A stretch of DNA of 64,000 bases from Chloroflexota bacterium (lineage in GTDB: Bacteria; Chloroflexota; Limnocylindria; Limnocylindrales; CSP1-4), in NCBI GenBank assembly GCA_003169735.1, contig PNAP01000007.1:43738-107737 (forward strand), given 5' to 3'. Under the pieces are notes generated by a model. It ran no database searches and was not told the DNA's origin. It was given only the letters and a program-made list of their open reading frames with translations. Position numbers and translations under genes: made by a program. This document shows, piece by piece, positions 956-19,540 of the stretch (the first letter of the stretch is position 1; each line of letters opens with the position of its first letter).

Positions 956-2053
956 TCAGGCGGTAGCGGGCGCCGCCGGTTCGGGGCTGACCTGGGCGTC
1001 GGCCAGCTGGGTCTGGAGGTTCGTCAGGCTGCCGCCGAACAGCTCGGCGACGATGCCCTTGGCGACGGCCCAGATGGCATCGGAGTCCTCCGACTTCAGT
1101 CCGGCGACGTAGAGGGTGACCTGTGTGCCTGCCGGGGTGGGCGCAAGGTCGAAGGTCGAGATCATCGGGCCCATCTGGGTCGTCGACATCAGCGTCACGC
1201 TCTCGAACGGGCGCCACTCGAGGACCTCTTCGATGACGGCGTCCTTCCCGTGGATGCAGTGGTTCGTGGTCCCGACACCAGCGCGGCCGTCGGCGTTCGA
1301 TTGGTCGACGCGGATGACGCCGACCTGCCATCTCGGGCGGAGGCGTGGCGACGTGATCCATTCCCAGACCACGGGCGGCGAGGCGGCCATGTCACGGTCC
1401 ATGCGCATCCAGGCAGAATCGTCATCGAGGTGGTGCTGAGCGCGCAATTCCTCGGCCACCCAGCGGGCGCCGAGATCCTCGACGAAGCCCTCGACGGTGC
1501 CGACGTCGTACTCCTCGGTGTGCGGGAGCATCCCGAGCCGCGGGCAGTCGAGCCCCAATGCCTCGACGGATTCCTTCGTGAGCAGCGCGTAGGCGCGGAG
1601 GCCACGCTGCTCGACGACGTGGTTCTTGAGCAGCCGATGGACGGCGATGACGTCGCTGCCGGCAAGGTTCTCCCGACCACCGACGGTCTGGCGGACGGCC
1701 TGCCCGGCGTGGACGACGAACTTCAAGTCGAGCTTCGGGATGAGGATGCACGCGTTGCACTGGCAACTCGTCGCCTGGGAGACATCGCGGAGGCGGCGGC
1801 GGAAGGCGAAGTAGCAGGCATCGATGGTGTCGAGGAGCTGCGGACCACTCATCGTGGGCGTCGGTGCGAAGACGAAGCACGCATCGCCTTCGACGGCGAC
1901 CAGGGTGAACGGGGGCGCCAGGCGGCCGATCACGGTCTCGATCAGGTCGGTCAGGACGTCCTGGGCGTGATCGAGCTCGGTGCCGGCGAGGTAGCTCGTG
2001 TAGCCGGAGATGTCGGCGATCAGCAGGACGACGGGTTCGGGGGCGCGGAGCAT
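956..2053 (-). CDS. class III adenylate/guanylate cyclase-like domain fused to an SRPBCC (polyketide cyclase-like) domain
   Basis: N-terminus 'VVLLIADISGYTSYL...VAVEGDACFVF' resembles the cyclase DIxGFT...GD..F pattern. The C-terminal half resembles SRPBCC ligand-binding domains. The 365-aa ORF is coherent; its plus-strand overlaps look like shadow ORFs. Confidence 0.55.
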   Translation of the reverse strand: MLRAPEPVVLLIADISGYTSYLAGTELDHAQDVLTDLIETVIGRLAPPFTLVAVEGDACFVFAPTPTMSGPQLLDTIDACYFAFRRRLRDVSQATSCQCNACILIPKLDLKFVVHAGQAVRQTVGGRENLAGSDVIAVHRLLKNHVVEQRGLRAYALLTKESVEALGLDCPRLGMLPHTEEYDVGTVEGFVEDLGARWVAEELRAQHHLDDDSAWMRMDRDMAASPPVVWEWITSPRLRPRWQVGVIRVDQSNADGRAGVGTTNHCIHGKDAVIEEVLEWRPFESVTLMSTTQMGPMISTFDLAPTPAGTQVTLYVAGLKSEDSDAIWAVAKGIVAELFGGSLTNLQTQLADAQVSPEPAAPATA

Positions 2054-2065
2054 TTCCCTCTGACT

Positions 2066-5000
2066 CTAGGCGAGGCCGACGGGCGTGGCAAGGTCGGACG
2101 GTCGGTCGACGTCCCGGAGTGATCGAGCCTCAGCATCGAATACGCGCCAATCGGCCTCCGGGATGACTCGGAGTGCCAGCACCTGCTGGAGAGCGCGGAG
2201 GCTCGATTCCCCGGACGCCGCCAGATCGGAGGCCGCGGCGACGGCGGCGCTGCGGTCAAGGACGATGGGGAGGCGCTGGATCTGGCCGGACGATTCGAGC
2301 ACGACGCCCTGATCGACGTCATAGCGGTAGCTCCCGTCGGGAGCGGCGAGCCGCTGGAGCATGGCGCGGATGACGGCGGTTTCCACCCACGGCATGTCGC
2401 CGGCGATGACGGCGAGGAGCGGCCCCGTCGCCCGCTCGGCACCGGCGGCGAGTCCGGCCAGTGGCCCGGCGAACGGCTGCGGATCGAGCACGACACGGAT
2501 CGGCACGGGCAGGTCGTCGGGGAGCGGCACGGACAGGCCGCCGGCCGGCCCGACGACGATGACCTCGCGGCAGACATTGGCAAGCGCGCGAATCGCATGG
2601 TGGAGGAGCGGCCGGCCATCGAGCGGCTCCGCCATCTTGTCGCGGCCGAAGCGTCGAGAGCGGCCGCCCGCCAGGACGATGCCGGACGAGGCCGGGGTCA
2701 GATGCCTCGGTGCCGGCGACGGCTCTGCGGAGCGGCGGCGACGGAGCGTCGCGGCGGCCGCGGCGGTCGCTGCGGGCGCGGTTGCGACGGGCACGACCTC
2801 GACCACCGCGTTGTAGTCCGGGACCAACGCGACCGGATCCCGCCGGCCGGGCGCGATGAGCGGATTCGCCTCCGGGAAGAACATCTGCACGTTGCCGGGC
2901 CGGATCTCGGCAAGGGTGATCCGCGCCGCGACCTCGCCCGTCTCGGACCGCACCACGACCCGGTCTCCCTCGGCCAGACCGAGCGCTCGGGCGTCCGAAT
3001 CGGCCATGAACAGCGCATCGCGCTCCCCGCCCGTCAGGGGATCGCGCGCCTTCCAGACCATCGAGTTGAACTGCTTGCCGCGGCGGGTAGCCAGCAGGAA
3101 GCGCCCGGGCTGGAGCTCGACCTCGCGGGGTCGGACGGTGGCGAAATGAGCCTTGCCATCGGCCGTCGGGAAGATCCAGCCGTCGCATAGCCGCTCGCCA
3201 CCCCACTGGATCGCGTCGCCGGTCTTGGCCAGGTGCTGGATGCCGTCGTAGAACGGCACGATGCGTGCGATCTCCTCGCGGATCGCCTGGGCCGATTCGA
3301 AATGGCAGAGGGTGGCCGCCCGCTCGGGATCCACCCGGTGCGCCAGCTCCAGCAGCGACTCCCACTCGCTGCGTGCCTCGCCGACCTGTGGGTGGGCAAG
3401 CTCCGGCGAGAACGCCACGCGGCGCTCGGTGGTCGTTTCGGTGCCGCCGCCGGGCTGCTCATAGCGGGTCGTGGCCGGCAGGAGCAGCACCTCCTCGCCC
3501 GGGTCGATGAGCATCTGCGAGCTGACCATGATGTCCTGGTGGACGCGCAGCGGGACGCGCTCCAGGGCCCTCGCGACGTCCGCCGGATCGGGCAGCGTCT
3601 CGAGGAAGTTGCCACCCACCGACCAGAGCACGTCCAGCTCGCCGCGGCCGGCGGCCTCGACCATCTCGGCGGCTGAGCGGCCGCGCTCGCCGCGGAGCGG
3701 GAACCCCCAGCGCGCGCCGAGGTCCGCGGCCGCGTCTTCGGTGATCGGCACACCGCCCGGGAAGACGGTCGCGTACGCGCCCATCTCGGCGCCGCCCTGC
3801 ACGCCGGAGTGGCCGCGAATGGGCATCAGTCCCGTGCCCGGCCGCCCGACATTGCCGCGCGCCAGTGCCAGGTTCATGATCGCCGACACGTTGTCCGTGC
3901 CGCAGACGTGCTGCGTGATGCCCATCGACCAGACGAAGACGGCCGTCTTCGCCGCCGCGTACATGGTCGCGAACCGGCGGATGTCGTCGACGGTGGCGCC
4001 ACTCCAGCGGGCCAGATCCGTGAGCGGGGTCCGCGCCAGCTCCTCGCGCAGATCCTGCCAGCCGTCGGTGTGGCGGGCGATGAAGTCCTCATCGACCGCG
4101 CCCGGGCCGCCATCCTCGATGAGCACCTTCAGCACGCCGTTCAGGAACGCGATGTCGCCGCCGATGTTGACCGGGAAGAACTCGTCGGTGATCTTCGTGC
4201 CGAAGATGGCGCTCTCCGGGTTCGATGGCACCCAGTAGTGCTCGAGGCCCGGCTCGCGGAACGGGTTGACGACGGCGACCTTGCCGCCGCGCTTCTTGGC
4301 CATGTAGAGGTACTTCATGAAGACGGGCTGCGCGTTGGCGACGTCCGAGCCGAAGAGGACGGTCAAGTCTGATTCGATGACGTCCCGGTAGGAGCAGGTG
4401 GTGGCAGCCACACCCAGCGCATGCTTGAGCGCCCCGGTCGACGGCGCGTGGCAGATGCGGGCCGCGTTGTCGATGCTGTTCGTGCCGAAGAAACGCGCGA
4501 CTTTCTGGGCGACGTAGTAGGTCTCGTTGGTGAGGCCGCGCGCGGTGAGGTAGAAGCCGAGGCGGTCGTCGCCGGGCATCGTGGCCGCGGCCGGGTCAGT
4601 CGGCGGGGTGCTCGCGGCCCTCGCCCGGACGATCCGGTCCGCCACCAGGTCGAGCGCCTCCGGCCAGGAGATGCGCCGAAACCCGAGTTCACCGCGCCGC
4701 CGGAGCATCGGGTACGGCAACCGCCCGAGCTTTCGCAGGCTTGCACTGTCGAGCTCGCGCAGGTTGTCGACCACGGCCAGCCGCTCGGGGTCGAGCGGGC
4801 CCATCGTGTTGACCTGGAGCAGGTTGAGGCGCGTCGTGCAGAGATGGACGCCGTCCATCGTCCAGTCCTTGAAGCCGGCCACGCCGAGCGCGCATCCGTC
4901 GCACACGCCCTTGCGCAGGATCCGCCACGCGTACGGCAGATGGCGCCAGTTCTCGCGGACGGTGCGCGCCATCTCCCAGTAGTGATTCGGCTTCTGCCGG

Positions 5001-5245
5001 TCGAGTCCGTTCGGCACGAGCCCGACCCACAGGCGCGGATCGATCCGGCGAGCCTTCTTGCGCGGCGGTCGCAGGGAGACGCGCGGATCCGCGTTGGGCA
5101 GGGCCTCGGCGGCGGGCGGGGGTTCGTGCGGATCGGGCCCGTGCTGCTCGGTGGTCATCGCCTCCGAGTATGCATGCGCGTATCGGGTCGCGGCCTCAGC
5201 GCCCGGCGCCTCGCCGCGAAGCGAAGAGCCGCGTTCCGGCGGCAT
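2066..5245 (-). CDS. FdhF/YdeP-family molybdopterin (bis-MGD) oxidoreductase fused at its C-terminus to a MobA-like molybdenum-cofactor guanylyltransferase domain
   Basis: N-terminal 4Fe-4S motif 'CDGCALGVAGFKDWTMDGVHLC' and the downstream molybdopterin-oxidoreductase body (~800 aa) match YdeP/FdhF-type enzymes. After an Ala-rich linker, the last ~230 aa ('IVLAGGRSRRFGRDKMAEPLDGRPLL...') match MobA (plus-strand coordinates ~2066-2760). It is a single uninterrupted ORF. Confidence 0.8.
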   Translation of the reverse strand: MPPERGSSLRGEAPGAEAATRYAHAYSEAMTTEQHGPDPHEPPPAAEALPNADPRVSLRPPRKKARRIDPRLWVGLVPNGLDRQKPNHYWEMARTVRENWRHLPYAWRILRKGVCDGCALGVAGFKDWTMDGVHLCTTRLNLLQVNTMGPLDPERLAVVDNLRELDSASLRKLGRLPYPMLRRRGELGFRRISWPEALDLVADRIVRARAASTPPTDPAAATMPGDDRLGFYLTARGLTNETYYVAQKVARFFGTNSIDNAARICHAPSTGALKHALGVAATTCSYRDVIESDLTVLFGSDVANAQPVFMKYLYMAKKRGGKVAVVNPFREPGLEHYWVPSNPESAIFGTKITDEFFPVNIGGDIAFLNGVLKVLIEDGGPGAVDEDFIARHTDGWQDLREELARTPLTDLARWSGATVDDIRRFATMYAAAKTAVFVWSMGITQHVCGTDNVSAIMNLALARGNVGRPGTGLMPIRGHSGVQGGAEMGAYATVFPGGVPITEDAAADLGARWGFPLRGERGRSAAEMVEAAGRGELDVLWSVGGNFLETLPDPADVARALERVPLRVHQDIMVSSQMLIDPGEEVLLLPATTRYEQPGGGTETTTERRVAFSPELAHPQVGEARSEWESLLELAHRVDPERAATLCHFESAQAIREEIARIVPFYDGIQHLAKTGDAIQWGGERLCDGWIFPTADGKAHFATVRPREVELQPGRFLLATRRGKQFNSMVWKARDPLTGGERDALFMADSDARALGLAEGDRVVVRSETGEVAARITLAEIRPGNVQMFFPEANPLIAPGRRDPVALVPDYNAVVEVVPVATAPAATAAAAATLRRRRSAEPSPAPRHLTPASSGIVLAGGRSRRFGRDKMAEPLDGRPLLHHAIRALANVCREVIVVGPAGGLSVPLPDDLPVPIRVVLDPQPFAGPLAGLAAGAERATGPLLAVIAGDMPWVETAVIRAMLQRLAAPDGSYRYDVDQGVVLESSGQIQRLPIVLDRSAAVAAASDLAASGESSLRALQQVLALRVIPEADWRVFDAEARSLRDVDRPSDLATPVGLA

Positions 5246-5600
5246 CGCACCAGATCAGGCGGGCCTCCTCGGGCATGGGCGCCGCCGCACCGGCTGCATG
5301 GGTGCCGGCAGACGCAGTCAGCGGCTTACGTCACCTCGACGCGAATCTGGCCAATCGGATGTCGTCCTTGTCGACCGATCTGGTTCACCTGACCCATGCA
5401 CCCGGTACGCCCAGCCACAAGCCTTGACTCCGCCCGTCCTTGAGCGAGCCGACCGGCGTAGAACCATTCGTTCACGCTGGCAGCACCCATGCAGGCGGTA
5501 CACCGCCGGTCAAACCGCGGCACGTGGTCAATCCGATCTCGGCCGACGGGCCGCGAAGAGTCGAGTTGATGCCGCGTCGCACCAGATCAGGCCCGGGTCG
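5215..5600. repeat. cluster of short dispersed/inverted repeats (left flank of the XRE gene)
   Basis: Direct repeat of ~50 bp ('gccgcgaagag...gcgtcgcaccagatcaggc') at ~5215-5265 and ~5549-5600. Motif 'cccatgca(g/c)(g/c)cggtac' at ~5393 and ~5484, and its reverse complement 'ccggctgcatgggtgccgg' at ~5290. Confidence 0.6.
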
Positions 5601-6319
5601 ATAGGTGGCTCGGTGCCGAGCGTCAGTGCACGCAGCCACCCGACCGAGGAGCCTGGGAAACGCGTGGCGAAGATTTCGGGGTAGCGCGCCAGGAGCGAGC
5701 GGTTTCGGGCGAGGTCTCGGACGACCCAGCAGACACCGACTCGAAATGGCTCGCCTGCCCCGACCCCGATGGCGAGCGCCCCTGCCTCGGCGCGCTTCCG
5801 TTCCGACGCGCGCGTGGCTCCGCCGACATTGACGAGCGTATTGATGCATTCGACAAGGACGAGCCAGCGGCTCCTGATGTTGATGAGGCCAACATCGGTC
5901 GATCTCGATGGGTCGTCTGGCTTGGTCGAAAGTTCGAAACGTCGAACGTAGCCGGCCGGCTTGGCAGTTCTCATCACCAGCTCCTGGATGCGGAGGTGGC
6001 CGGCATCGACGGGTTCCTCGTTCGGGTCGCGCGACAGATCGATGCGCAGAGCGATGCCCAGAGCGACGGCCATCCGTTGCCAGGTGTCCACAGTGTGTCC
6101 ACCGCCGCGGCCGAGTTCGAGGTCACTGATCGTGGTCTGCGAGAGGCCGGATCGCGCACCGAGTCGCGCCTGTGTCCAGCGCCGCCGCTGACGAGCGGCG
6201 CGGATGGCGCCACCGAGTCGTCCCAATTGCTCAGCATTGCGCCGACGGGCCTCGGCGGCGAGTTCGATAGGCTTGAGCTTGACCATACCGGCTGCATGGT
6301 TACCGACTGGCCTTACCAT
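5528..6319 (-). CDS. XRE-family HTH regulator with a ~150-aa C-terminal domain
   Basis: 'WTQARLGARSGLSQTTISDLELGRG' is an HTH_XRE motif. The last ~20 codons lie inside a ~50-bp sequence that is repeated upstream of the fdhF-like gene. Confidence 0.6.
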   Translation of the reverse strand: MVRPVGNHAAGMVKLKPIELAAEARRRNAEQLGRLGGAIRAARQRRRWTQARLGARSGLSQTTISDLELGRGGGHTVDTWQRMAVALGIALRIDLSRDPNEEPVDAGHLRIQELVMRTAKPAGYVRRFELSTKPDDPSRSTDVGLINIRSRWLVLVECINTLVNVGGATRASERKRAEAGALAIGVGAGEPFRVGVCWVVRDLARNRSLLARYPEIFATRFPGSSVGWLRALTLGTEPPIDPGLIWCDAASTRLFAARRPRSD

Positions 6320-6703: not shown

Positions 6704-7576
6704 CTACCCGTTGAGGTCGATGCGCTCGCGGCCGGTGTAGATGTTGAAGCGGTCGGCGCGGAGGAAGCCGATCAGGGTCAGATTCAGACGAGCGGCGGTG
6801 GCGACGGCGAGTGCCGATGGGGCCGACACGGCCGCCAGGATCGGGATCCCGGCCATCGCGGCTTTCTGGACGATCTCGAACGAGACTCGGCCGGAGACGA
6901 GCAACACGTCGCCGCTGAGTGGCACGCGGCCGGCCAACGCCATCGCGCCGATCAACTTGTCCAGGGCGTTGTGGCGGCCGACATCTTCGTGCAGCGCGAC
7001 CAACTCACCCGCGGGCGTGAAAAGCGCCGACGCGTGGAGTCCACCGGTCGATTCGAACACCGACTGCGCCGCGCGCATCGACCCCGGGAGGCCGATGAGC
7101 ACGGATCGACCGACGACCAGACCCGGCCCGAGCGGCGAGCAGCGAGCGGCGATGTCGTCGATCGAGGCTTTGCCGCAGATCCCGCAACTCGCCGTCGCCA
7201 CGAAATTCCGCTCGGCCACGCGCGAGGCATCGAAGGCACCGGCAAGGCGGACCGTGATCTCGTTCTCGGGCTGAGCCATCCGCGCCGGGTCACCCGCCTC
7301 GAATCGGGCGCCGGCGAGGTCGGTCGGGCGAACCAGTCCCTCGGACACGAGGAAGCCGGCCGCCAGCTCCCGTTCCGCACCCGGGGTTCGCATCGTGACC
7401 GCGACATCGACCGGGTCGTGGCCCGGCCCGCAGGCGCGGATCTCGAGCGGCTCCTCTCCGACCAGGCGCTCGTCGCGTTCCACCGATATCTCGCCCGAGA
7501 CGGCCAGGACACGCGCGGTGCCGGTCGTCCGCAACCAGCCAGCAAGCGGATCGTCGGGCAGATGGGCGGCGGCCAT
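6704..7576 (-). CDS. fdhD: formate dehydrogenase accessory sulfurtransferase FdhD
   Basis: 'SCGICGK' catalytic-cysteine motif and 'GRHNALDK' are FdhD hallmarks. Length 290 aa. Confidence 0.9.
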   Translation of the reverse strand: MAAAHLPDDPLAGWLRTTGTARVLAVSGEISVERDERLVGEEPLEIRACGPGHDPVDVAVTMRTPGAERELAAGFLVSEGLVRPTDLAGARFEAGDPARMAQPENEITVRLAGAFDASRVAERNFVATASCGICGKASIDDIAARCSPLGPGLVVGRSVLIGLPGSMRAAQSVFESTGGLHASALFTPAGELVALHEDVGRHNALDKLIGAMALAGRVPLSGDVLLVSGRVSFEIVQKAAMAGIPILAAVSAPSALAVATAARLNLTLIGFLRADRFNIYTGRERIDLNG

Positions 7577-8655
7577 CAGCCCGGTGCGACGAACGGCCGA
7601 AGTACCTCGACGGCGGCGTCGATGGCCGCATCGGTCGTGTAGACGTGCGGCGCCAAGCGGATCGCGGTGCCGCGGACGGAAGCTCGGATACCGGCCGCCG
7701 CTAACGCCGCACGCACCGCATCGGGATCTCGGACCGGGACGCAGACGAGCGTGGAGGCCGGTTCGGGTTGGCCGAGGGCTCGCGTCAACCGCGAGGCAAG
7801 CTCCGGGACGCGTGCCAACTCACCGGTCGCCTGCCACTCCGCGATGAGGCGCAGCGATTCGCGCGCCCCGACCCACGGCAACCATGCGAGGGAAACGTCG
7901 AAGCGGGCAGCGCCCGAGCCGAGGGTGAGCGGGCCACCGAAGTACCGCCCGTACGGCTGGTCCGCCGCACGCCAGTTGGCCGCAAGCGGCGAGACGGTGT
8001 CTGCTGCGTCGGCCGAGATGGACATGAATGCCACGCCACGCGGCGAGAGGAGATGCTTGTACGCCGCACAGACCAGGTAGTCGGCCGCCGCGAGATCTTC
8101 ACCCGCCCGGAGGAACGGCAGCGCCTGGGTGATATCGACGAGCACCCTTGCCCCGACCGCGTGTGCCCGTTCCACGATCGATGCGAGATCGGCCCGCTTG
8201 CCGGTCTGCATCTGGACGAGGCTGAACGCGACGAGCGTGGTCGTGGGCCGGACAGCTTCGGCCAAGGTCGCGAACGGCACCTCCCGCACCGCCGTCCCGC
8301 GCTCAGCGGCGACCAGCAGCGGGAACAGCACGGACGTGAACTCGTCGGCCGGGACGACGACCTCGTCTCGTGCCGTCAGCGCGGCCGCCACCATCCCGAC
8401 GCCGACCGAGACCGCGGGCAGCAACGCCACGTCCGCAGCGGCCACGCCGCACAGTGCCGCGAATGGGGTACGCGTCTCATCGGCCGGCCGATCCCAATCA
8501 GCGATCCAGTCCGCGCGGCCACCCTGCCACGCATCCAGAGCGTGCCGCATGGCGGCGATCGTCGCCCGCGGCGGCAATCCGTAGCTGGCCGAATCGAGGT
8601 AGATCAGCCCGGTCGTGGGCTCGAAGGCTTCGGCCGGTGTAGTCGCGGTGCCCAT
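7576..8655 (-). CDS. aminotransferase class V-fold PLP-dependent enzyme (cysteine desulfurase-like)
   Basis: Class-V fold, with a putative PLP-lysine region 'LVCAAYKHLLSPRG'. Its stop abuts or overlaps the fdhD start at 7576. Confidence 0.75.
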   Translation of the reverse strand: MGTATTPAEAFEPTTGLIYLDSASYGLPPRATIAAMRHALDAWQGGRADWIADWDRPADETRTPFAALCGVAAADVALLPAVSVGVGMVAAALTARDEVVVPADEFTSVLFPLLVAAERGTAVREVPFATLAEAVRPTTTLVAFSLVQMQTGKRADLASIVERAHAVGARVLVDITQALPFLRAGEDLAAADYLVCAAYKHLLSPRGVAFMSISADAADTVSPLAANWRAADQPYGRYFGGPLTLGSGAARFDVSLAWLPWVGARESLRLIAEWQATGELARVPELASRLTRALGQPEPASTLVCVPVRDPDAVRAALAAAGIRASVRGTAIRLAPHVYTTDAAIDAAVEVLRPFVAPG

Positions 8656-8682
8656 CAGCGTCGATTATCGTGGACGGCGATG

Positions 8683-9189
8683 AACACGCGGACGGTCCGG
8701 CTCATCGCCCTGACAGGGGCGCTCGTCGTAGCGGCATGCACGCAGGGTGCCGCCCCCGCGCCTGCGACTCCCTCGCCGGCGGCGAGCGCGCACGCGCAGT
8801 CGTTCGAAGTCGACTACGACAGCGGCTCGATTCCGCCGCCGGCCAACGACCAGTACCTCCTGACCGGCTCCTTCAGCTCGGACGGAGCGACACTCGCCGT
8901 CCACTACCTGCTGACGTATTCGTCGAGCGCCAAAGACGACATCGACTGGTCTGGCACGCTCACGGGCGACTCGGCCGCGCGGTGGCAGACCCTGGTCGGC
9001 GGGACCGTCCTCGGGCCGATCCCGCCACTGCTGCCCGGCAGCCCCTCATTCACCGTGACCATCACGCCGTACCAGGGTGGCAGCAGCGGCGGCGGCGTCC
9101 CGACGAACCGCGACGCCTGGCAGGCGCTCATCGACGCGGTCGACCAACAGGCACGCGCCGAGCTGGGCAAACCGCGCTCAAGCCCGTGA
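8683..9189 (+). CDS. lipoprotein (signal peptide with lipobox), function unknown
   Basis: 'MNTRTVRLIALTGALVVAACTQG' is a lipoprotein signal peptide with Cys. Only this C-terminal part of track ORF 7768..9189 looks genuine; its stop overlaps the guaD start. Confidence 0.6.
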   Translation, partial: NTRTVRLIALTGALVVAACTQGAAPAPATPSPAASAHAQSFEVDYDSGSIPPPANDQYLLTGSFSSDGATLAVHYLLTYSSSAKDDIDWSGTLTGDSAARWQTLVGGTVLGPIPPLLPGSPSFTVTITPYQGGSSGGGVPTNRDAWQALIDAVDQQARAELGKPRSSP

Positions 9190-10574
9190 GCGCTTCAGCC
9201 GCGCCCGTCCTGCCGGCCACGCCACCGTTCGCGATCCGTGCCCGGCTCCTGACGCCGCTCAACGCGGACGGCGCCACGCGCTACGAACCGGACGCCGTCA
9301 TCGAGGTCGATGCGTCTGGCCGGATCACGTCGATCGAGCCTTGGGAAGCCTGGACGCGCGTTCAACACAGCTCCACTGGCCAGGCCGCCTCGACTGGTCA
9401 GCTCATCGACCTCCGTCCGTGGGTCCTCCTGCCCGGAATGGTCGACCTTCACGTCCACCTGCCGCAGGTCCCAGCGGCCGGCTTTGGCGCCGGGCTCGAC
9501 CTCCTGACCTGGCTTCGCCGGTACATCTTCCCGCTCGAACAGGCCTTCGACGAGGCGACCGCCGAGCGCGTTGCGCCGCGCGTCTTCCGCGCCATGGCTG
9601 CTGCCGGCACGACCACGGCCGTGATGTATGGCGCGATCTGGGCGCCGAGCCTGGACGCGTCCTTCCGAGCCGCCGAGGCCCACGGCATCCGCGCCGTCAT
9701 CGGCAAAGTGATGATGGACGAGCTGACGTACGACGACCGGCTGCCGCGCGACCGCATCCTGGAGACGAGCCTCCAGCAATCGGCGGACCTGTGCCAGCGC
9801 TGGCATGGCAGGGACAACGGGCGGCTCCGCTACGCGTTCACGCCGCGGTTCGCGGTCAGTTGCTCCGGCGACATGCTGCGCGAATCAGCGGCGCTGGCCC
9901 GCTCGACTGGCGCGTACTGGCAGACGCACATCGCCGAGGATCGCGGCGAGATCGCCGAGGTCGCCCGCCGCTTCCCCGATGCCCGCGACTATCTCGATGT
10001 CTACGACCGTGCCGGCGCCCTCGGGGAGCGGACCATCCTCGCCCACGCCATCTATCTCTCGGATCGCGAGTTGGATCGCCTGGTGGAAAGCGGCTCCCGC
10101 ATCGCCCATTGCCCGGAGTCCAACCTGTTCCTGGCAAGTGGCCTGATGCCGCTTGCCCGCTATCGGCGGCGTGGCGCGATGGTCGGTCTCGGCTCGGATG
10201 TCGCGGCGGGACCGGCGCTCTCGCTCTTCGAGCAGATGCGCATCGGCTTCTACGCGCAGAACGCGCTGCACGTCACGACCGACGACCCGAGCGCCATCCT
10301 CGATCCGCTGGACTGGTTGCGTATGGGCACGCTCGATGGCGCGCGGATGCTCGGCCTGGACGCGGAGATCGGCTCGCTGGAGGTCGGCAAGGAAGCCGAC
10401 CTCATCGCCGTCGACGCAGCACTGACCGAGCCGCTACCCGGCGTGGACGTGCACCACCCGGTCGAGTTCGAAGGCCCGGACCAGCCTTCCGACCTGATGA
10501 GCCGCCTGATGTTCCGAGCTCACCCCGAGATGGTGCGCGGTGCTTGGGTCCGAGGCCGCCTGCTGCAACGCTAG
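9186..10574 (+). CDS. guaD: guanine deaminase / amidohydrolase-family aminohydrolase
   Basis: 'MVDLHVHLPQ' metal-binding HxH, 'WQTHIAED', and an overall amidohydrolase fold typical of guanine deaminase. GTG start at 9186 in the frame of track ORF 8670..10574. The Arg-rich N-terminal extension of the track ORF is rejected. Confidence 0.8.
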   Translation: MSASAAPVLPATPPFAIRARLLTPLNADGATRYEPDAVIEVDASGRITSIEPWEAWTRVQHSSTGQAASTGQLIDLRPWVLLPGMVDLHVHLPQVPAAGFGAGLDLLTWLRRYIFPLEQAFDEATAERVAPRVFRAMAAAGTTTAVMYGAIWAPSLDASFRAAEAHGIRAVIGKVMMDELTYDDRLPRDRILETSLQQSADLCQRWHGRDNGRLRYAFTPRFAVSCSGDMLRESAALARSTGAYWQTHIAEDRGEIAEVARRFPDARDYLDVYDRAGALGERTILAHAIYLSDRELDRLVESGSRIAHCPESNLFLASGLMPLARYRRRGAMVGLGSDVAAGPALSLFEQMRIGFYAQNALHVTTDDPSAILDPLDWLRMGTLDGARMLGLDAEIGSLEVGKEADLIAVDAALTEPLPGVDVHHPVEFEGPDQPSDLMSRLMFRAHPEMVRGAWVRGRLLQR

Positions 10575-10581
10575 GCGAGGC

Positions 10582-11709
10582 TCAGCCCGCGGTCCCTCCG
10601 CAGAAGTCGTCGGTGGTGCCCTCGTCGCTGCCGAAGAACACGTCGTAGAGCTGGCCGACATGGACGGCCTTGCCGTCCTGGTGCGACGACGATGGCCAGT
10701 ACCAGAACATGTCGATGGCCACCCGATAGCTTTCGTGCGTGCCCGGGTCGGCGAACGTGTAGGTCCGACCGGACCACTGGGCGTTGTAACCGCCGGTTGC
10801 CGACGCCTTGACGATCGTGCTGGTCGAAAGATCGTGCCAATCCGCGCTCGAGTTGACGTCCCCATCGTTGTACTGGATCCGGTAGCGCCAGCCGACGGTC
10901 TGCGCGTGCGTCCCCGACACACGGCTGCTCGCATAGACGATCGGAGCACGGATCGTCAACGTCCTCAGCGTGTCTTCGCTGGTGGTGCTGTAGATGCAGC
11001 GCGCCTCCGGATACTCAGCCACATCGATCAGATCATGGGCGCCGTAATGGCCGCTGTGGCCGGGAAAACTGGCGGCGCTTGGCGCTGGCGCGGTCTGCAC
11101 GGCAGCCGGTCGGCCAGACTCGAAGCTTTCGCAATAGTCCGGGGTGATGAGCTGGACGCCCACCTCCCCGGACCCCTCGAGGACATGCTCGTAGTAGCCG
11201 TCAATTTGGCTGGCTGTGCCGACCGGGTTGGTGACGCCGGACGCGTACCAGAACGCCTCGACCACGACTTCGTAGCGAACCCCGGAGACCGGATCGACGG
11301 CGTGACTCCAGCGCGGGAACATCGCGTTGCGCTTGGCCGTGGCCGCCGACGTCTGGATGGCGCTCTCGTCGATCACCGTGTACACGTCGTCGCCGGAGGC
11401 GGCGTTCGACCAGATCTGGTACTGCACGCCGACGGTCTGGGTGCCCGCACCCTTCGTGCCGAAGATGATGGGACGGCGGATGGTGATCTTGTCGATAAGG
11501 TCCGTGCCCGCCTGGCTCTGGCAGATCGTGCCGGCGTACTCGGTGTTGTCGAGCAGGATGTGCACCCCATACGTGCCCGTCTCACCGCTGGTCTCGCCGG
11601 CCAGCACGGGGGCCGCGCCCAGCGCCATGGCCGCCAACGCGACGAGCAGGGTCGACAGGCCGGCGCGCCGCGTGATGGTTCGAACTCGGAGCCGTCGAAA
11701 CGCTGTCAT
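10582..11709 (-). CDS. secreted protein of unknown family with an internal two-domain duplication (paralog A)
   Basis: Signal peptide 'LLVALAAMALGAAPVLAGE'. Two ~140-aa repeats, each starting 'G(T/H)YG(V/A)H(I/D)L(L/I)D...EYP..C' and ending 'W(S/H)H...Y(R/E)VV(V/I)...FWY'. ATG at 11709 is preceded by a GAGGT Shine-Dalgarno-like sequence. Confidence 0.6.
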   Translation of the reverse strand: MTAFRRLRVRTITRRAGLSTLLVALAAMALGAAPVLAGETSGETGTYGVHILLDNTEYAGTICQSQAGTDLIDKITIRRPIIFGTKGAGTQTVGVQYQIWSNAASGDDVYTVIDESAIQTSAATAKRNAMFPRWSHAVDPVSGVRYEVVVEAFWYASGVTNPVGTASQIDGYYEHVLEGSGEVGVQLITPDYCESFESGRPAAVQTAPAPSAASFPGHSGHYGAHDLIDVAEYPEARCIYSTTSEDTLRTLTIRAPIVYASSRVSGTHAQTVGWRYRIQYNDGDVNSSADWHDLSTSTIVKASATGGYNAQWSGRTYTFADPGTHESYRVAIDMFWYWPSSSHQDGKAVHVGQLYDVFFGSDEGTTDDFCGGTAG

Positions 11710-11777
11710 CGGGACCTCGGGTGCGGCGTGGCCCACGAGGCTACAGCAGGATCGCATGAACGGTCAGCAGGTGAGGT

Positions 11778-12872
11778 TCAGCCGCCGGTCGCTCCGCAGT
11801 ACCCAGGGTTGTTGCCCAGGTCGGTCCCGAGGACCACGTCGGTGACCTGGCCGACGTGCACCGCCTTGCCGTCCTGGTGCGACGCCGATGGCCAGTACCA
11901 GAACATGTCGATCACGATGCGGTAGAAGACGTGCGCGGTCGCGTGGGTGAGCGAATAGGTCCGACCGGACCACTGCGCGTTGTAGCTGCCGGTCGCCGAG
12001 GCCTTGACGACCGAGCTCGTCGAGAGGTCGTGCCAATCCGCGCTGGAGTTGAAGCTCACATCGTTGTATTGGATGCGGTATCGCCAGCCAACGGTCTGTC
12101 GTCCCGAGGTACCGACGCGGTCGCTCGCGTAGACGATGGGCGCACGGATGGTCATCGTCTTGAGCGCAAGATGGCCGGTCGAGCTGTAGACGCAGCGCGT
12201 CTCCGGGTACTCCTGATCGTCGATCAGATCATGCGCGCCGTAGTGATCGCTGTGGCCTGGAGGGTCGCCGACCAGGCCGTCAGGGATCGAGACGCTTCGG
12301 ACGCCGCCAGCGCGTTCGCCTTCGGAGCTCTCGCAGTCGTTCGGGGTGATCGAATGCCCGCCGGCGTCGCCGGTCGCCGCGAGCTGGTGGTCGTAGTACG
12401 CCCCGATCTGGACCGCGGTGCCGACGGGTGTGGTTCCGTCCGGGCCGTACCAGTAGTCGGTGACGACCACGCGATAGGTCAATTCCGTCGGCACGATCGC
12501 GTGGCTCCAGCGCGGGAACATCGCGTTGTGGTTGGGCGTGGCGGTCGCCTTCCGCAGCGGGCTCGCGTCCAGCAGGGTGTAGGTATCGTCGCTCGCCGTG
12601 CTGACCTTCGACTCTATGGTCGTCACCTCGCCGACGCGCTGCGAGGCCACACCGCTCGTAGCGAAGATGATCGGTCGCCGGACGGTGATCTTGTCGATGA
12701 GATCCGTGCCCGTCTCGCTGGCGCAGATCGCGCCGGGATACTCGGGGTTGTCCAGCAGGATGTGTACGCCGTACGTGCCCGTCTCACTCGGAGTGCCGGC
12801 CACGACCGGCGCGACGCTGAGCGCGATCGATACGACCACGACCGCCAGGCCTGAAACGAGCGCACGCGACAT
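11778..12872 (-). CDS. secreted protein, paralog B of the upstream gene (same two-domain architecture)
   Basis: Signal peptide 'LAVVVVSIALSVAPVVAG'. About 60% identity to paralog A, including the conserved tail 'SHQDGKAVHVGQ...D...G...CG.TGG'. DNA-level similarity is visible at the 3' ends. Confidence 0.6.
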   Translation of the reverse strand: MSRALVSGLAVVVVSIALSVAPVVAGTPSETGTYGVHILLDNPEYPGAICASETGTDLIDKITVRRPIIFATSGVASQRVGEVTTIESKVSTASDDTYTLLDASPLRKATATPNHNAMFPRWSHAIVPTELTYRVVVTDYWYGPDGTTPVGTAVQIGAYYDHQLAATGDAGGHSITPNDCESSEGERAGGVRSVSIPDGLVGDPPGHSDHYGAHDLIDDQEYPETRCVYSSTGHLALKTMTIRAPIVYASDRVGTSGRQTVGWRYRIQYNDVSFNSSADWHDLSTSSVVKASATGSYNAQWSGRTYSLTHATAHVFYRIVIDMFWYWPSASHQDGKAVHVGQVTDVVLGTDLGNNPGYCGATGG

Positions 12873-12941
12873 GGTGACCTCTGGCTCCGATGCTAAGGGC
12901 GGAGGCTACATCACCGTTGGACCGTGGGCTAGCCTAAACAG

Positions 12942-14546
12942 GTGAACGACTGCGATGTGCTCATCGAGGGCGGCACGGTCATCGACGGGACCGGAAGCGC
13001 GGGTTTCGCGGGGGCGGTGGCGATCACCGGAGATCGATTGCGCATCATTCCCGCTGGCGCCGCCACGGAGATGCGGGCCGGCCGGCGCATCGACGCGACC
13101 GGCCTGGTGGTCGCGCCCGGCTTCATCGATCTGCATAGCCACTCCGGCTTGATGATCCTGGCCGACCCGCGCCACGAACCGAAGGTGCGGCAGGGCGTCA
13201 CGACCGAGGTCATCGGCGTCGACGGGAACTCGTACGCGCCATTCTGTCGCCGCGAGGACCTGGCCGCGTTCGTCAGGCTCAACGCCGGCCTGGATGGCAT
13301 CCCCGACATCGCCTACGACTGGGACACGGTCCTGAGCTACCTCTCGCGGTTCGACCGGAAGGTGAGCGTCAACCTCTGCTATCTCGTGGGCAATTCGGCG
13401 CTGCGAATCGATGCCGTCGGCTGGGACGACGTGCCGGCCGATGCGGCGGCGGTCGCCCGGATGCGCGCGCTGCTGCGCGTGGCGATGGAGGAAGGCGCCT
13501 TCGGCGTCTCGTCCGGCCTCGATTACCCGCCCGGCGCCTTCGCCTCGACCGACGAACTGGCCGCGCTTACGGCCGAAGCATCGGCGCTTGGCGGCATCTA
13601 CCACACCCATGTCCGGTACGCGCTGGGCGACCGATTCCTGGACCCGTTCCGCGAGGCGGTCGAGATCGGCCGGCGCGGGGGCGGGCCGGTCCACATCACG
13701 CACTTCTACCACCGCGCGACCTACCCGGGCACTCCGGAACAGATGCTCGGCCTGGTCGATGACGCGCGTGCCAACGGTGTTGATGTGACCTTCGACAGCT
13801 ACCCCTACGAGTGGGCAAGCACACGGCTGCTGATCATGTTGCCGCCGTGGGTCCAGGCCGGCGGCCCCGAGCCTTTGAAGGAGCGCCTCGCCGATCGCGC
13901 CGTCCGGGATCGGCTGCGCGACGAGATCGACGTCCGCGGCCGCAGCTATGCCGGCGCGAATCCGTGGGACGACCTGCGCCTCGGCTACTTTGCCCTTGCC
14001 GAGAACGCCCAGTGGGAGGGTCGGACGCTCGGGGAGTACATGGCCGCGACTGGCCTCGATGTCGTGGATGCCATCTGCGACCTGCTGCTGGCCGAGGATC
14101 TGCGCGTCAACGAGGTCACGCCCGGACCGTGGACGGGCGGGCTGCCGCCGTTCATCCGCCATCCGGTCGGCATGATCGGCACCGATTCGACGTTCATCGG
14201 CGCCAAGCCGAGTCCCCGCACCTACGGCTCGTTCCCGCGCGTGCTTGGCGAGTTCGTGCGCGACCTGCGCATCCTGCCGCTCGCAGAGGCGATCCGAAAG
14301 ATCACCTCGGCGCCGGCGGCGCGTCTCGGGCTCACCGACCGCGGCGTGATCCGCGACGGCATGAGGGCCGACCTGTGCCTCTTCGATCCACTGACGGTGC
14401 GGGCCACTGCCACCTACGATGATCCGCGCCAGTTCCCGGTCGGCATCCCCTATGTCATCGTCAACGGCCAGATCGTCGTGGATCGCGGCGAGCACACCGG
14501 CGCGCTGCCCGGCCGCGCCCTTCGACGAGGCCGCGCTGATGACTGA
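12942..14546 (+). CDS. N-acyl-D-amino-acid deacylase (D-aminoacylase)-family amidohydrolase
   Basis: 'GFIDLHSHS' metal-binding motif and a D-aminoacylase-like overall layout (534 aa). GTG start. Confidence 0.8.
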   Translation: MNDCDVLIEGGTVIDGTGSAGFAGAVAITGDRLRIIPAGAATEMRAGRRIDATGLVVAPGFIDLHSHSGLMILADPRHEPKVRQGVTTEVIGVDGNSYAPFCRREDLAAFVRLNAGLDGIPDIAYDWDTVLSYLSRFDRKVSVNLCYLVGNSALRIDAVGWDDVPADAAAVARMRALLRVAMEEGAFGVSSGLDYPPGAFASTDELAALTAEASALGGIYHTHVRYALGDRFLDPFREAVEIGRRGGGPVHITHFYHRATYPGTPEQMLGLVDDARANGVDVTFDSYPYEWASTRLLIMLPPWVQAGGPEPLKERLADRAVRDRLRDEIDVRGRSYAGANPWDDLRLGYFALAENAQWEGRTLGEYMAATGLDVVDAICDLLLAEDLRVNEVTPGPWTGGLPPFIRHPVGMIGTDSTFIGAKPSPRTYGSFPRVLGEFVRDLRILPLAEAIRKITSAPAARLGLTDRGVIRDGMRADLCLFDPLTVRATATYDDPRQFPVGIPYVIVNGQIVVDRGEHTGALPGRALRRGRADD

Positions 14547-15414
14547 AGCGGCGACTTCCACGCGGCGCTATGGCGCCCAGAGCATGACCGCGCCACTCCG
14601 CGAGGTGCTCGTCAAGCGGCCGGGCGAAGCGTTCGGCCGAGCCTTCGATCACCCAGCCCACGGCTTCCGCCACCCGGTTGACCTTGTGCGAGCCCAGCGT
14701 GAACACGACACGTTCGTCGATCTGCTGGTGCGACTCGGCGTGACGGTCCATGAACTCGGCACGGAGATGGGCTCGCCCGACCTGACCTACACGTTCGACC
14801 CGCTGCTGGTGACCGATTCGGGCGCCATCCCCCTCCGCTCGGGCAAGGCGAACCGCCTGGGCGAGGAGGAGGCGATCCAGGCCTGGACCTCGGCGCACGG
14901 CATCCCGACCAGGGGCCGGATCGAGAGCCCCGGCACGGTCGACGGCGGCGACACGTTCTGGCTGCGGCCGGAACTCTTCTGCATCGGCCGGTCACTGAGG
15001 ACGAATCGCCACGGCGCCGAGCAGCTGGCCGAGATCGTCGGCGGCGACGTGCGCATCTTCGACGTGCCGTACGGCGAGGGTCCGTCGGAGTGTCTCCACC
15101 TGCTGAGCCTGCTGTCGCCCATCGCCGACGACCTGGCGGTGGTCTACCTGCCACTCCTGCCGGCCGGCCTGCATGAGCTCCTCAGCGACGAGGGCATCCG
15201 CTACGTGCCGGTCCCGCCCGAGGAGTTCCCGACCCAGGCACCGAATATCCTCGCCGTTCGCCCGGGCGTGCTGATCATGATGTCCGGCAACCCGCACACC
15301 GAGCGTGCCCTGCGCGCCCACGGCTGCGAGGTCCACACCTATGAGGCGCTCGAACTCGGGATCAACGGCAGCGGCGGCCCGACCTGCCTGACGCGGCCGC
15401 TCCTGCGCGGCTGA
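14539..15414 (+). CDS. amidinotransferase-superfamily enzyme (dimethylarginine dimethylaminohydrolase / arginine deiminase-like)
   Basis: C-terminal catalytic Cys in 'GGPTCLTRPL' and a DDAH-like layout. Start taken at ATG 14539, overlapping the upstream stop by 8 bp; the alternative start is ATG ~14584. Confidence 0.7.
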   Translation: MTEAATSTRRYGAQSMTAPLREVLVKRPGEAFGRAFDHPAHGFRHPVDLVRAQREHDTFVDLLVRLGVTVHELGTEMGSPDLTYTFDPLLVTDSGAIPLRSGKANRLGEEEAIQAWTSAHGIPTRGRIESPGTVDGGDTFWLRPELFCIGRSLRTNRHGAEQLAEIVGGDVRIFDVPYGEGPSECLHLLSLLSPIADDLAVVYLPLLPAGLHELLSDEGIRYVPVPPEEFPTQAPNILAVRPGVLIMMSGNPHTERALRAHGCEVHTYEALELGINGSGGPTCLTRPLLRG

Positions 15415-15438
15415 ACTTCGGCCCAGGGGCCGAACCAG

Positions 15439-15945
15439 CTAGGTCGGCGCTCCCGGCTTGAACACCATCATGATCACGATCAGGACGATGAGGAGCGAGA
15501 CGACCATCCCGGCCATCTGCTGACGCTTGATCAGAGCGACAAGATGCGCTGGCGGCCCGGATGGCAGGGCTGATCCGGGAGCTGGCGTCGGCGGCGGCCC
15601 GCTCGTCGCCGCGATGAGCGCCCTTGCGTTGGGCAGCATCACGAAGAGGGAGATCGACAGGGCGATCACGTAGAAGAGGATCCCCAGCCCGAGCCACACC
15701 TCGGTGACGCTGTGGCCCGATCGCCAGATGAGGGCGATGCCGGTGAGGCCCACCCAGATGGCGACGGGCAACACCATCCGCTCTGAGAGCCGATACGTCA
15801 GGCGGATGGCGAAATTGACGTGCTGCGGCTCCTTGCCACCCATCGCCCCGATGATCGGGAATGCGAACGTCGGGCCGAACGCGACGATCGCTCCACCGAT
15901 GTGCAGGAACAGGAAGGTCAGGAGCACGAGGTCTGTCGAGTTCAC
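15439..15945 (-). CDS. integral membrane protein (DUF2269-like, 4 TM)
   Basis: Four hydrophobic helices and a Pro-rich loop. There is no competing ORF with features. Confidence 0.55.
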   Translation of the reverse strand: MNSTDLVLLTFLFLHIGGAIVAFGPTFAFPIIGAMGGKEPQHVNFAIRLTYRLSERMVLPVAIWVGLTGIALIWRSGHSVTEVWLGLGILFYVIALSISLFVMLPNARALIAATSGPPPTPAPGSALPSGPPAHLVALIKRQQMAGMVVSLLIVLIVIMMVFKPGAPT

Positions 15946-19531: not shown

Positions 19532-19540
19532 GCACCACTG

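Follow-up and report, generated by a model that had tools for sequence, protein, structure and literature searches.

Fusions between enzymes of Moco biosynthesis are usually taken as the sign of a functional complex. One of them joins MoeA to MobB (PMC13197769), and in some bacteria the alpha subunit of nitrate reductase is fused with delta (NarJ), the chaperone for its maturation (PMC6147048, whose main and supplementary text do not list MobA or PF12804 among the fusions that they name). The route by which the bulky bis-MGD cofactor passes from MobA through a chaperone to an apo-enzyme is known mainly from transient interactions of the two-hybrid or SPR type (PMC10609526, PMC13197769). In E. 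coli, a TorD-MobA-apoTorA platform places MobA beside the apo-molybdoenzyme, into which the fresh bis-MGD is inserted directly (PMC10609526, PMC9103625); in vitro, insertion into apo-enzyme works without MobA or chaperone (PMC9103625). For formate dehydrogenases (FDHs) the maturation order is MoeA, MobA, FdhD and FDH, with an interaction between MobA and FdhD (PMC13197769), and it is established that FdhD sulfurates bis-MGD and delivers it after MobA (PMC13197769, PMC13653126). Here we analyse a gene in which an FdhF-type enzyme and MobA are parts of one polypeptide, an arrangement of which we found no published description. The gene lies in a stretch of Chloroflexota DNA of 64 kb, referred to below as the window, and its features are collected in Table 1.

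Table 1. Coordinates of the fusion gene, its parts and its upstream neighbours (positions in the window)
Feature	Position	Strand	Basis or remark
Fusion ORF, FdhF-linker-MobA	2066..5245	-	1059 aa from first ATG; stop codon 2066-2068
FdhF/YdeP-family Mo/W-bisPGD oxidoreductase body, residues 74-815	2801..5026	-	TIGR01701, PF00384, PF01568
N-terminal Cys cluster C115-x2-C118-x17-C136, presumed Fe-S site	4838..4903	-	Three Cys invariant
Cys265-His266 codons, motif ARICHAPS, predicted Mo/W ligand and catalytic His	4448..4453	-	Conservation
Inter-domain linker, residues ~821-850, Ala/Pro/Arg-rich	2696..2785	-	AF2, comparison of fused proteins
Complete MobA-type (GTP:Mo-MPT guanylyltransferase) domain, residues ~851-1059	2069..2695	-	PF12804, alignments, motifs, AF2
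fdhD, FDH-specific sulfurtransferase / bis-MGD chaperone	6704..7576	-	Upstream of fusion, same strand
Class-V aminotransferase-fold (cysteine-desulfurase-like) gene	7576..8655	-	PF00266; stop overlaps fdhD start

Reading frame and linker

The fusion gene is one ORF without interruption, and Pfam and NCBIfam domains together with motif alignment confirm that it encodes a genuine FdhF-type enzyme of the FdhF/YdeP family joined to MobA, as the original prediction had it. The peptide quoted in that prediction (IVLAGGRSRRFGRDKMAEPL) and the Ala-rich linker were both found in the ORF, and the junction, which had been placed at ~2740-2800, matches the linker region. The true start is probably M30 at position 5158, giving a protein of 1030 aa (2066..5158); public annotations of the identical protein use this start, and the AF2 pLDDT of residues 1-50 is below 50. 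Both domains match their families with E-values of 1e-29 to 1e-193, which, together with the recurrence of the gene in independent assemblies, puts the architecture far beyond chance. The AF2 model of the whole protein (pTM 0.72) was computed from alignment A5; alignment A4, in which standalone MobAs were combined with full-length proteins, was discarded because the MobAs were misaligned into the FdhF body.

Two genes can be joined falsely by the loss of a stop codon or by a frameshift, and suspicion is fed by the indel-prone nature of high-GC MAG data, by the many frame changes in the homologous region of a long-read MAG (L009) and by the separate genes of close relatives. The codon-position GC content of the ORF points the other way, with a GC3 of 0.86-0.98 in the same frame throughout the junction (0.86 in codon block 801-850 and likewise in 851-900) and with no stops or frame changes in the linker. 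The identical 1030-aa protein is encoded by 9 contigs, which come from at least 3 samples and were put together with different assemblers, and a single frame is kept in 13 diverged clusters; the relatives with separate genes are laid out differently and lack a linker of 23-52 aa. Tested by GC3 periodicity, diverged homologues and independent assemblies, an artefactual origin was rejected and is almost certainly wrong: the read-through is genuine and not a sequencing error.

Across the fused proteins the linker is 23-52 aa long, rich in P, A, R, S and T, unconserved and hypervariable. The AF2 model gives pLDDT values below 50 at residues 823-847 between confident domains on both sides, and by this model the linker is intrinsically disordered. 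Disordered Pro/Ala/Arg-rich linkers are open to proteases, and NCBI annotates a 253-aa MobA-only CDS within an intact fusion ORF (L014), both of which would suit a fusion at the gene level only, with MobA freed by linker proteolysis or by internal initiation. Near the junction, however, in-frame starts are limited to codons 807, 814 and 818, all within the conserved C-terminus of FdhF and none with a well-spaced Shine-Dalgarno; the next, M871, is downstream of the essential LAGG motif, and no conserved cleavage motif was found in the linkers of the fused proteins. Two proteins from the one ORF are in our judgement very unlikely, and the polypeptide probably stays uncleaved.

Oxidoreductase body

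The body scores 644.3 bits with TIGR01701 (FdhF/YdeP) against a cut-off of 582.15, over profile positions 6-738 of 744. Within it, PF00384, the molybdopterin oxidoreductase domain, covers residues 175-636 (120 bits) and PF01568, the C-terminal dinucleotide-binding domain, residues 717-814 (48 bits), and the AF2 pLDDT is mostly above 85. Scores for the FdhF equivalog TIGR01591 (339 bits, cut-off 666) and the YdeP equivalog NF007406 (215 bits, cut-off 1473) are both below threshold; among solved structures, the nearest are without exception formate dehydrogenases.

Among 61 homologues C115, C118 and C136 are the only invariant Cys of the N-terminal segment, but PF04879 was not found in the protein with Pfam, and a fourth Cys ligand, as a [4Fe-4S] site would have, was not identified; the PDB alignments begin after this segment. 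The pLDDT below 50 at residues 117-138 is as expected, because a metal-site loop has here been modelled without its metal. At the active site, all 61 homologues have C265 and at least 90% of them H266. The motif ARICHAPS stands opposite ARVCHSPT in the alignment with a solved FDH alpha subunit and aligns with the Cys/Sec-His pair of solved FDHs. The metal ligand is Cys, not selenocysteine, and a formate-dehydrogenase-type Cys-His active site is predicted.

MobA domain

PF12804 (MobA-like NTP transferase) covers residues 855-1017 with 103.7 bits against a cut-off of 27, and residues 850-1050 are modelled with a pLDDT of 85-95. The domain aligns end to end with the standalone operon MobAs (199-201 aa) and with E. 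coli MobA, and with its motifs invariant it was rightly described as complete. These motifs (LAGG..R.FG..K, D, GPLAG and GDMP in the fused set) match L12-G15, R19, G22, K25, D71, G78-G82 and D101 of E. coli MobA. The Asp residues of VLDP and of GDMP, which align with D71 and D101, are invariant in 10/10 fused domains. In alignment A3, VLAGGRSRRFGRDK and GPLAGL of the fused domain stand opposite VLAGGKARRMGGVDK and GPLAGM of E. coli MobA and opposite ITAAGLSSRMG and GLLTSV of E. coli MocA, so that the motifs are of the GTP type (LAGG...R..G..K, GPLAG) and not of the MocA type (TAAG, GLLTS). These MobA and MocA motifs reportedly set nucleotide specificity.

The fused domain falls below the cut-offs of all NCBIfam MobA equivalogs (63.7 bits against 151.85 for TIGR02665), and its Gly-rich loop, residues 862-867, has a low pLDDT. 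Both points would fit a catalytically dead domain retained as a built-in chaperone or nucleotide-binding scaffold, with a separate MobA elsewhere making bis-MGD. The equivalog cut-off is nevertheless uninformative for this lineage, because its standalone MobAs, including those named MobA by NCBI, score 61-104 bits and are below it as well; MobA models outrank MocA models in the fused domain and in all of these standalone proteins. None of the motifs that match catalytic or GTP-binding residues of E. coli MobA varies among the fused domains, and no second mobA was found within the window. We consider a dead domain highly improbable and infer from the sequence that the MobA domain is full and catalytically competent. 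No MobB-like part was detected in the fusion protein with Pfam or NCBIfam.

Neighbouring genes

The upstream fdhD gene scores 162.5 bits with TIGR00129 (cut-off 140.9), contains PF02634 and encodes a CxxC motif, C-G-I-C, at residues 131-134; fdhD adjoins fdhF in related loci, fused and unfused alike. The aminotransferase-fold gene next to it matches cysteine-desulfurase models only weakly, with every score well short of the respective cut-off, and its synteny with fdhD is shared by two related loci (L093, L094) and absent in another (L002). Its product may tentatively be regarded as a possible sulfur donor for FdhD.

A separate MocA-like gene at 26254..26889, also part of the original prediction, is borne out by a TIGR03310 (MocA) score of 110.8 bits, which is below the equivalog cut-off of 186 and compares with 32 bits for MobA models, and by its LAAG and GLSSS motifs (ILAAGAGSRFG and GLSSSV), whose aligned counterparts in E. 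coli MocA are TAAG and GLLTS. This gene adjoins uricase and lies ~6 kb from the XDH subunit genes. Beside the fusion, the window also encodes an MCD/XDH branch (MocA, XdhC-type factors) and a Mo-MPT/sulfite-oxidase branch. Searches for a Moco riboswitch or other regulatory RNA and for terminator-like sites found none; one promoter-like site was found.

Recurrence and origin of the fusion

The fusion is unusual, as had been remarked, but it is no one-off and is rather the trait of a whole clade. All three Pfam domains are present together in twelve clusters at 68-100% identity. In 7 GTDB species representatives FdhF runs on into MobA in one unbroken frame; one of these representatives, L014, adds the thirteenth cluster. 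All carriers are Limnocylindrales-type Chloroflexota MAGs. In a NJ tree of 124 FdhF bodies the fused ones form one clade with a bootstrap of 100/100, within which identity has fallen to 68-76% for FdhF and 52-62% for MobA. A single event in a group of uncultured soil Chloroflexota joined what had been two neighbouring genes.

Unfused relatives display several arrangements. In L088 and L090 the order is fdhD-fdhF-mobA, with separate genes and an 80-nt gap or a 4-nt overlap; in L040, L062 and L063 mobA overlaps the fdhF stop in a different frame; and in L001 and L003 the order is mobA-fdhD-fdhF. A loss of the stop codon starting from this last order was rejected, mobA being upstream of fdhD in these first two unfused relatives, and it is the fdhF-mobA adjacency found later in the others that provides a route for the merger of neighbours. 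The ancestral state would have been an fdhD-fdhF-mobA operon with fdhF and mobA adjacent and translationally coupled, whose two frames a small indel or the loss of a stop codon would have merged. In L087, which belongs to the fused clade, the linker is interrupted by an in-frame TGA, after which MobA is intact. L009 was considered as a split version of the fusion and rejected, its sequence being riddled with frame changes and uninformative.

A junction-spanning query of the representative library, aimed at other lineages, returned only 2 fragments that span the junction and no further long fused protein, which is weak negative evidence because full-length fusions are probably hidden in 50%-identity clusters represented by an unfused FdhF. 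A MobA-only word-indexed search missed even known fused proteins and was unusable for counting fusions. In public records the fused proteins are named just 'FdhF/YdeP family oxidoreductase', or the MobA tail alone is called, and a genome survey could wrongly score the carriers as lacking mobA.

Proposed role of the tether

A bifunctional polypeptide, formed once by the fusion of operon neighbours and holding MobA beside its client, very probably accounts for the observations. The N-terminal part would be a cytoplasmic FdhF/YdeP-family Mo/W-bis-pyranopterin-guanine-dinucleotide oxidoreductase, and the tethered MobA would make bis-MGD from Mo-MPT and GTP, both domains presumably being active. 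The tether would set MobA and apo-enzyme at 1:1 stoichiometry, a few nanometres apart, so that the nascent, labile bis-MGD would be made beside the client enzyme and would then pass to the FdhD encoded upstream for sulfuration, with insertion following post-translationally. Most likely, then, the tether keeps MobA beside its client, with FdhD acting between the two. Proximity may bring a kinetic benefit or protect the cofactor; a benefit from channelling is conjecture, since insertion in vitro needs neither MobA nor a chaperone.

It had been proposed that the fused MobA inserts bis-MGD co-translationally into the nascent oxidoreductase, an idea that having the enzyme and its cofactor-finishing enzyme in one polypeptide invites. 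We give it hardly any credence. MobA is C-terminal, made and folded only when all four oxidoreductase domains are already clear of the ribosome, and for FDHs the sulfuration and delivery by FdhD, encoded here upstream, come after MobA (PMC13197769, PMC13653126). The domain order and the FdhD step make co-translational insertion in cis impossible and restrict any co-translational action to one in trans, on a different nascent chain; the disordered linker and the unfused relatives also speak against it.

It is possible, though we rather doubt it, that the fusion of operon neighbours was near-neutral and the tether is mechanistically idle, MobA serving in trans as the cell's general MobA for any bis-MGD enzyme, as it would have done when its gene was separate. 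A merger of overlapping, translationally coupled genes takes only a 1-2-nt indel, sister lineages work with separate adjacent genes, L087 carries its linker stop within the fused clade, and the linker is long, disordered and unconserved. Against this, the fusion has been kept in 13 clusters and 7 species representatives across a clade as diverged as described above, a retention that argues at least against a deleterious fusion but is no proof of benefit. The covalent linkage is clearly dispensable, given the separate genes of the sister lineages and the TGA in the linker of L087. For the tethered MobA that we favour, these same two features and the long, disordered, hypervariable linker point to a loose tether rather than to a mechanism in which coupling is obligatory.

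Further, MobA might serve one client only, the protein being a self-provisioning formate dehydrogenase for which MobA and FdhD form a dedicated assembly line, with bis-MGD synthesis scaled strictly to the client and its share of Mo-MPT secured. We think this unlikely. If true, the tether would secure that share against the MCD/XDH and Mo-MPT/sulfite-oxidase branches, and the fusion would represent the long-postulated MobA-chaperone-apoenzyme complex in a stable form that occurs in nature, suited to structural work. More generally, the fusion offers 'Rosetta-stone' evidence, a modest natural hint, that MobA works beside its client; it is a ready-made construct for structural capture of the MobA-FdhD-FDH hand-over, and the fused, adjacent-gene and linker-stop forms within one clade supply natural controls.

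Comparison with known systems

The closest counterparts are the separate operons of other Limnocylindrales/Chloroflexota (L088, L090, L040, L062, L001, L003), which encode the same three proteins with fdhD adjacent. Their FdhF bodies are 67-74% identical to the fused FdhF, and their MobAs 36-44% identical to the fused domain over the full length. They differ in that mobA is a gene of its own, behind an 80-nt gap, overlapping in another frame or upstream of fdhD, whereas here a 30-aa linker joins the two in one frame. The MobA- and FdhD-dependent maturation of FdhF/FDH in E. coli has the same chemistry and step order (PMC13197769, PMC13653126), the same GTP-type motifs and a Cys/Sec-His motif; there, however, the proteins are free and come from unlinked loci, while here MobA and the oxidoreductase are fused, and the latter belongs to the YdeP-like TIGR01701 branch with Cys in place of selenocysteine.

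Other fusions within Moco biosynthesis, MobA-MobB (NF011056, NF011059) and MoaC/MobA (NF011070), join MobA to a neighbouring step of the pathway. They link biosynthetic enzymes to one another, whereas here MobA is linked to the end-user enzyme, and without MobB. [quoted passage not shown] In the TorD-MobA-apoTorA platform proximity is achieved through a transient, chaperone-mediated complex, whereas the peptide tether described here would make it permanent. The FdhF-MobA fusion is a new combination of known parts.

The FdhF-MobA reading frame and its recurrence

The fusion ORF comprises 1059 codons without interruption, and an identical public protein is called from its second ATG (M30, window position 5158), giving 1030 aa. 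The NCBIfam model TIGR01701 ('FdhF/YdeP family oxidoreductase') matches residues 74-815 with 644 bits (cut-off 582), no stop codon is present in the junction sequence '...PDYNAVVEVVPVATAPAATAAAAATLRRRRSAEPSPAPRHLTPASSGIVLAGGRSRRFGRDK...', and GC3 is 0.86-0.98 with the frame unchanged across the junction. ORF, Pfam and NCBIfam matches (Table), junction sequence and GC3 thus bear out the original prediction of a single-ORF FdhF-MobA fusion, coordinates included, and the identification of its two parts as an FdhF/YdeP-family enzyme and MobA is supported.

Table. Features of the window around the fusion gene and beyond.
Feature	Position	Strand	Remarks
DUF2652 + SRPBCC (polyketide-cyclase-like) gene	956..2053	-	starts 12 nt past the fusion stop
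FdhF-MobA fusion gene	2066..5245	-	
PF00384 (Pfam)	fusion residues 175-636		
PF01568 (Pfam)	fusion residues 717-814		
PF12804, MobA-like NTP-transferase domain (Pfam)	fusion residues 855-1017		
XRE-family HTH gene	5528..6319	-	between fdhD and the fusion gene
fdhD	6704..7576	-	upstream of the fusion gene; above family cut-off, CxxC motif
Class-V aminotransferase-fold, cysteine-desulfurase-like gene	7576..8655	-	stop overlaps the fdhD start codon
Amidohydrolase	8670..10574	+	
Guanine-deaminase-like amidohydrolase, malate synthase A, dihydropyrimidinase/allantoinase-like gene	within 8670..26889		
XDH large, 2Fe-2S and FAD subunits	15861..20398		
Uricase	25385..26311		
MocA	26254..26889		
Sulfite-oxidase-family Mo-MPT domain protein	47983..48633	+	PF00174
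Putative secreted repeat protein	59316..63050	+	1244-aa ORF

The original prediction had named a stop codon or frameshift at the junction in other assemblies as the mark of a sequencing error; three lines of evidence speak against this. The exact 1030-aa protein recurs across 9 contigs, of which those listed come from three samples with differing assembler naming styles and have their local synteny in common. A homology search with the fusion protein yielded 12 clusters from NCBI, JGI, ENA and Logan assemblies (68-100% identity, 943-1049 aa), all with the three Pfam domains. GTDB species-representative genomes were scanned with the aligned MobA domains of the fusions as query, followed by tblastn and an open-frame test, and FdhF and MobA lie in one unbroken frame in seven of them, all MAGs labelled Chloroflexota, Limnocylindrales or similar. 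Examples of MAGs with the fusion are CAWGBA01, JACCQX01 and JALZLU01. On the strength of these 9 contigs, 12 clusters and seven representatives, an assembly or sequencing artefact is rejected.

Public annotation of the architecture is uneven. In locus L014 (identical to L004), one of the seven representatives, a 1063-aa FdhF-MobA ORF (1343..4534) is intact in the DNA, yet its MobA tail alone is called, as a 253-aa CDS, leaving 2.4 kb geneless; annotation pipelines may therefore mishandle such fusions. In a long-read MAG (L009, 1634..4621) the fdhF-mobA homologue is fragmented over frames 1, 2 and 3, through either pseudogenisation or homopolymer-type assembly errors, and was used as evidence neither for nor against the fusion.

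The MobA domain and the separate MocA

Alignment of the fused MobA domain with E. coli K-12 MobA and MocA, taken from the RefSeq genome, recovers the motifs LAGG...RRFGRDK, D, GPLAG and GDMP, corresponding to E. coli MobA L12-G15, R19, G22, K25, D71, G78-G82 and D101, and all are invariant in 10/10 fused domains. Equivalent positions read TAAG and GLLTS in E. coli MocA, and LAAG and GLSSS in the product of window gene 26254..26889, which scores 111 bits with the MocA model against 32 with MobA. The two dinucleotide branches are therefore separately encoded, as had been proposed from the sequence. With the MobA equivalog models the fused domain reaches about 64 bits against a cut-off of 152. 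Every standalone MobA tested from the lineage, including those named MobA by NCBI, likewise falls under the cut-off, so the low score is a lineage effect and no sign of decay of the domain.

The oxidoreductase body

The nearest solved structures to the oxidoreductase body are formate dehydrogenases without exception (NAD-dependent FdsA types, F420-dependent FDH, M. extorquens W-FDH, B. subtilis YjgC and E. coli FDH-H), and its 'ARICHAPS' segment aligns with the Cys/Sec-His active-site pair of FDH. Among 61 homologues C265 is invariant and H266 nearly so; the N-terminal C115, C118 and C136 are also invariant, while no fourth ligand of this cluster was found. Because the body scores under the cut-offs of both the FdhF and YdeP equivalog models, formate is its presumptive substrate.

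Structure prediction and linker

AlphaFold2 modelling of the fusion from an alignment of 61 sequences (mean pLDDT 80.6, pTM 0.72) gives a confident oxidoreductase body and a confident MobA domain (pLDDT 85-95); pLDDT falls below 50 in the linker (823-847), at the N-terminus (first 50 residues), in the loop of the Cys cluster (117-138) and in the Gly-rich loop of MobA (862-867). The linkers of the fused proteins measure 23-52 aa, abound in Pro, Ala, Arg, Ser and Thr, and show no conservation: in the alignment of fused clusters the oxidoreductase body is ~70% identical and the linker unalignable, and the start of the MobA domain is strongly conserved ('TPxASGIVLAGGRSSRFGRDK'). Low pLDDT, variable length and absent conservation are, at the level of sequence and model, the signature of a flexible tether with no fixed interface. 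The two parts could conceivably be separated by proteolysis. Release of a free MobA by internal initiation is unlikely, as the only in-frame starts near the junction of the window ORF lie inside the conserved FdhF C-terminus or past the LAGG motif.

Origin of the fusion

When 124 FdhF bodies are placed in a neighbour-joining tree, the fused proteins group as a single clade (bootstrap 100/100). Relatives outside it have the layout mobA-fdhD-fdhF (loci L001 and L003) or fdhD-fdhF-mobA as separate adjacent genes, the latter two genes being set apart by an 80-nt gap in L088, overlapping by 4 nt in L090, and in L040, L062 and L063 arranged so that the mobA start spans the fdhF stop in a different frame. 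In the full-data tree, P0075 and P0066 come out as the bodies nearest to the fused clade; both have the adjacent-gene arrangement, but the sister relationship has a support of just 28/100. Over its full length the fused MobA domain matches the operon MobAs at 36-44% identity, and is 42-52% identical to other standalone MobAs of the phylum. Inside the fused clade, locus L087 (body P0013; 3880..3990) retains the whole layout of the fusion, with a linker-like tail of ~40 aa in frame, but has one in-frame TGA within the linker and an intact MobA beyond it; the TGA may reflect a secondary split, read-through or a sequencing error. Taking the single clade, the adjacent-gene relatives and L087 together, the simplest history is that translationally coupled fdhF-mobA neighbours merged once via a small mutation and the merged gene was retained as the clade diversified, the link being breakable again with neither part lost. 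Assembly VBFZ01, a single MAG, carries two separate loci with fdhF next to mobA, on two contigs (L040 and L063), which points either to possible duplication of the module in one genome or to a mixed bin.

Gene neighbourhood

The product of the class-V aminotransferase-fold gene could be a dedicated sulfur donor for FdhD; its matches to cysteine-desulfurase families are weak, each far under cut-off, and its synteny with fdhD is found in L093 and L094 and absent from the more distant fused locus L002. At fused loci L008, L012 and L014 the gene immediately preceding the fusion is fdhD, and none was found within the flanks present for L007 and L011. Since L012 and L014 have no HTH gene at that place, the HTH gene of the window seems to have been inserted locally or to be a dedicated regulator. 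No Moco riboswitch was found at the fusion locus. The DUF2652 gene is probably co-transcribed with the fusion gene; two DUF2652 paralogues lie close to the fused gene in L002.

Window 8670..26889 is a purine and ureide catabolism neighbourhood. Kindred neighbours recur at the fused genes of L002 (XDH, amidohydrolases) and L005 (a MocA-like gene, uricase, OHCU decarboxylase and HIU hydrolase), which hints that the FDH-like enzyme may be tied to purine degradation. The longest ORF of the 8670..10574 amidohydrolase is extended at its N-terminus by an Arg-rich stretch of about 170-250 aa, probably left untranslated; the L093 homologue is called at 462 aa. With the PF00174 gene, each of the three Moco branches (bis-MGD, MCD and Mo-MPT) has a client encoded in the window.

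At the far end of the window, the protein encoded by 59316..63050 contains three tandem repeats of ~170 aa, 75-81% identical in translations of the minus-strand frame. Two small high-GC3 minus-strand ORFs (59822..61117 and 61124..62692) were rejected as antisense artefacts of this gene. The repeat went undetected by Tandem Repeats Finder, presumably on account of its length: the unit is about 500 nt, which equals or exceeds the longest period (500 nt) that the tool handles.

What the tether may do

MobA forms bis-MGD, which FdhD binds, furnishes with a sulfido ligand whose sulfur comes from a cysteine desulfurase, and delivers to FDH; contacts between MobA and FdhD are on record (PMC13197769, PMC13653126). 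In the case of TorA, the chaperone TorD has been proposed as a platform linking MobA and the apo-enzyme (PMC10609526, PMC9103625). The co-translational cofactor insertion suggested in the original prediction is not supported; in cis it is excluded by domain order, as translation reaches MobA last. In the best-supported reading the tether would keep one MobA per oxidoreductase within reach, so that bis-MGD could be made locally, passed to FdhD and inserted post-translationally. Any benefit of such tethering is inferred. A serious rival, which seems to us quite possible without being probable, is that the fusion is near-neutral: relatives manage with separate genes, L087 has a stop in its linker, and bis-MGD insertion is feasible in vitro without MobA (PMC9103625). 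Derived from operon neighbours and not obligatory, the fusion is mechanistically unsurprising, but it provides a useful natural handle for studying the hand-over from MobA to an apo-enzyme, and a warning for annotation.

Comparison with known fusions

The fusion is, as far as seen, confined to one clade of uncultured Chloroflexota. Its proteins are already public, named only 'FdhF/YdeP family oxidoreductase' or 'molybdopterin-dependent oxidoreductase alpha subunit'. Full-text searches of the open-access literature and the queried databases returned no description of a molybdoenzyme-MobA fusion, and there is none in the main text of a domain-fusion survey of about 5,900 genomes or in the supplementary text available for it. 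The parts and the pathway are thus known, and their covalent joining is apparently undescribed. Related fusions that are known join Moco-pathway enzymes to one another, as in the MobA-MobB and MoaC/MobA models of NCBIfam and the MoeA-MobB fusions on record (PMC13197769), or a molybdoenzyme to its chaperone, as in nitrate reductase alpha and delta (PMC6147048).
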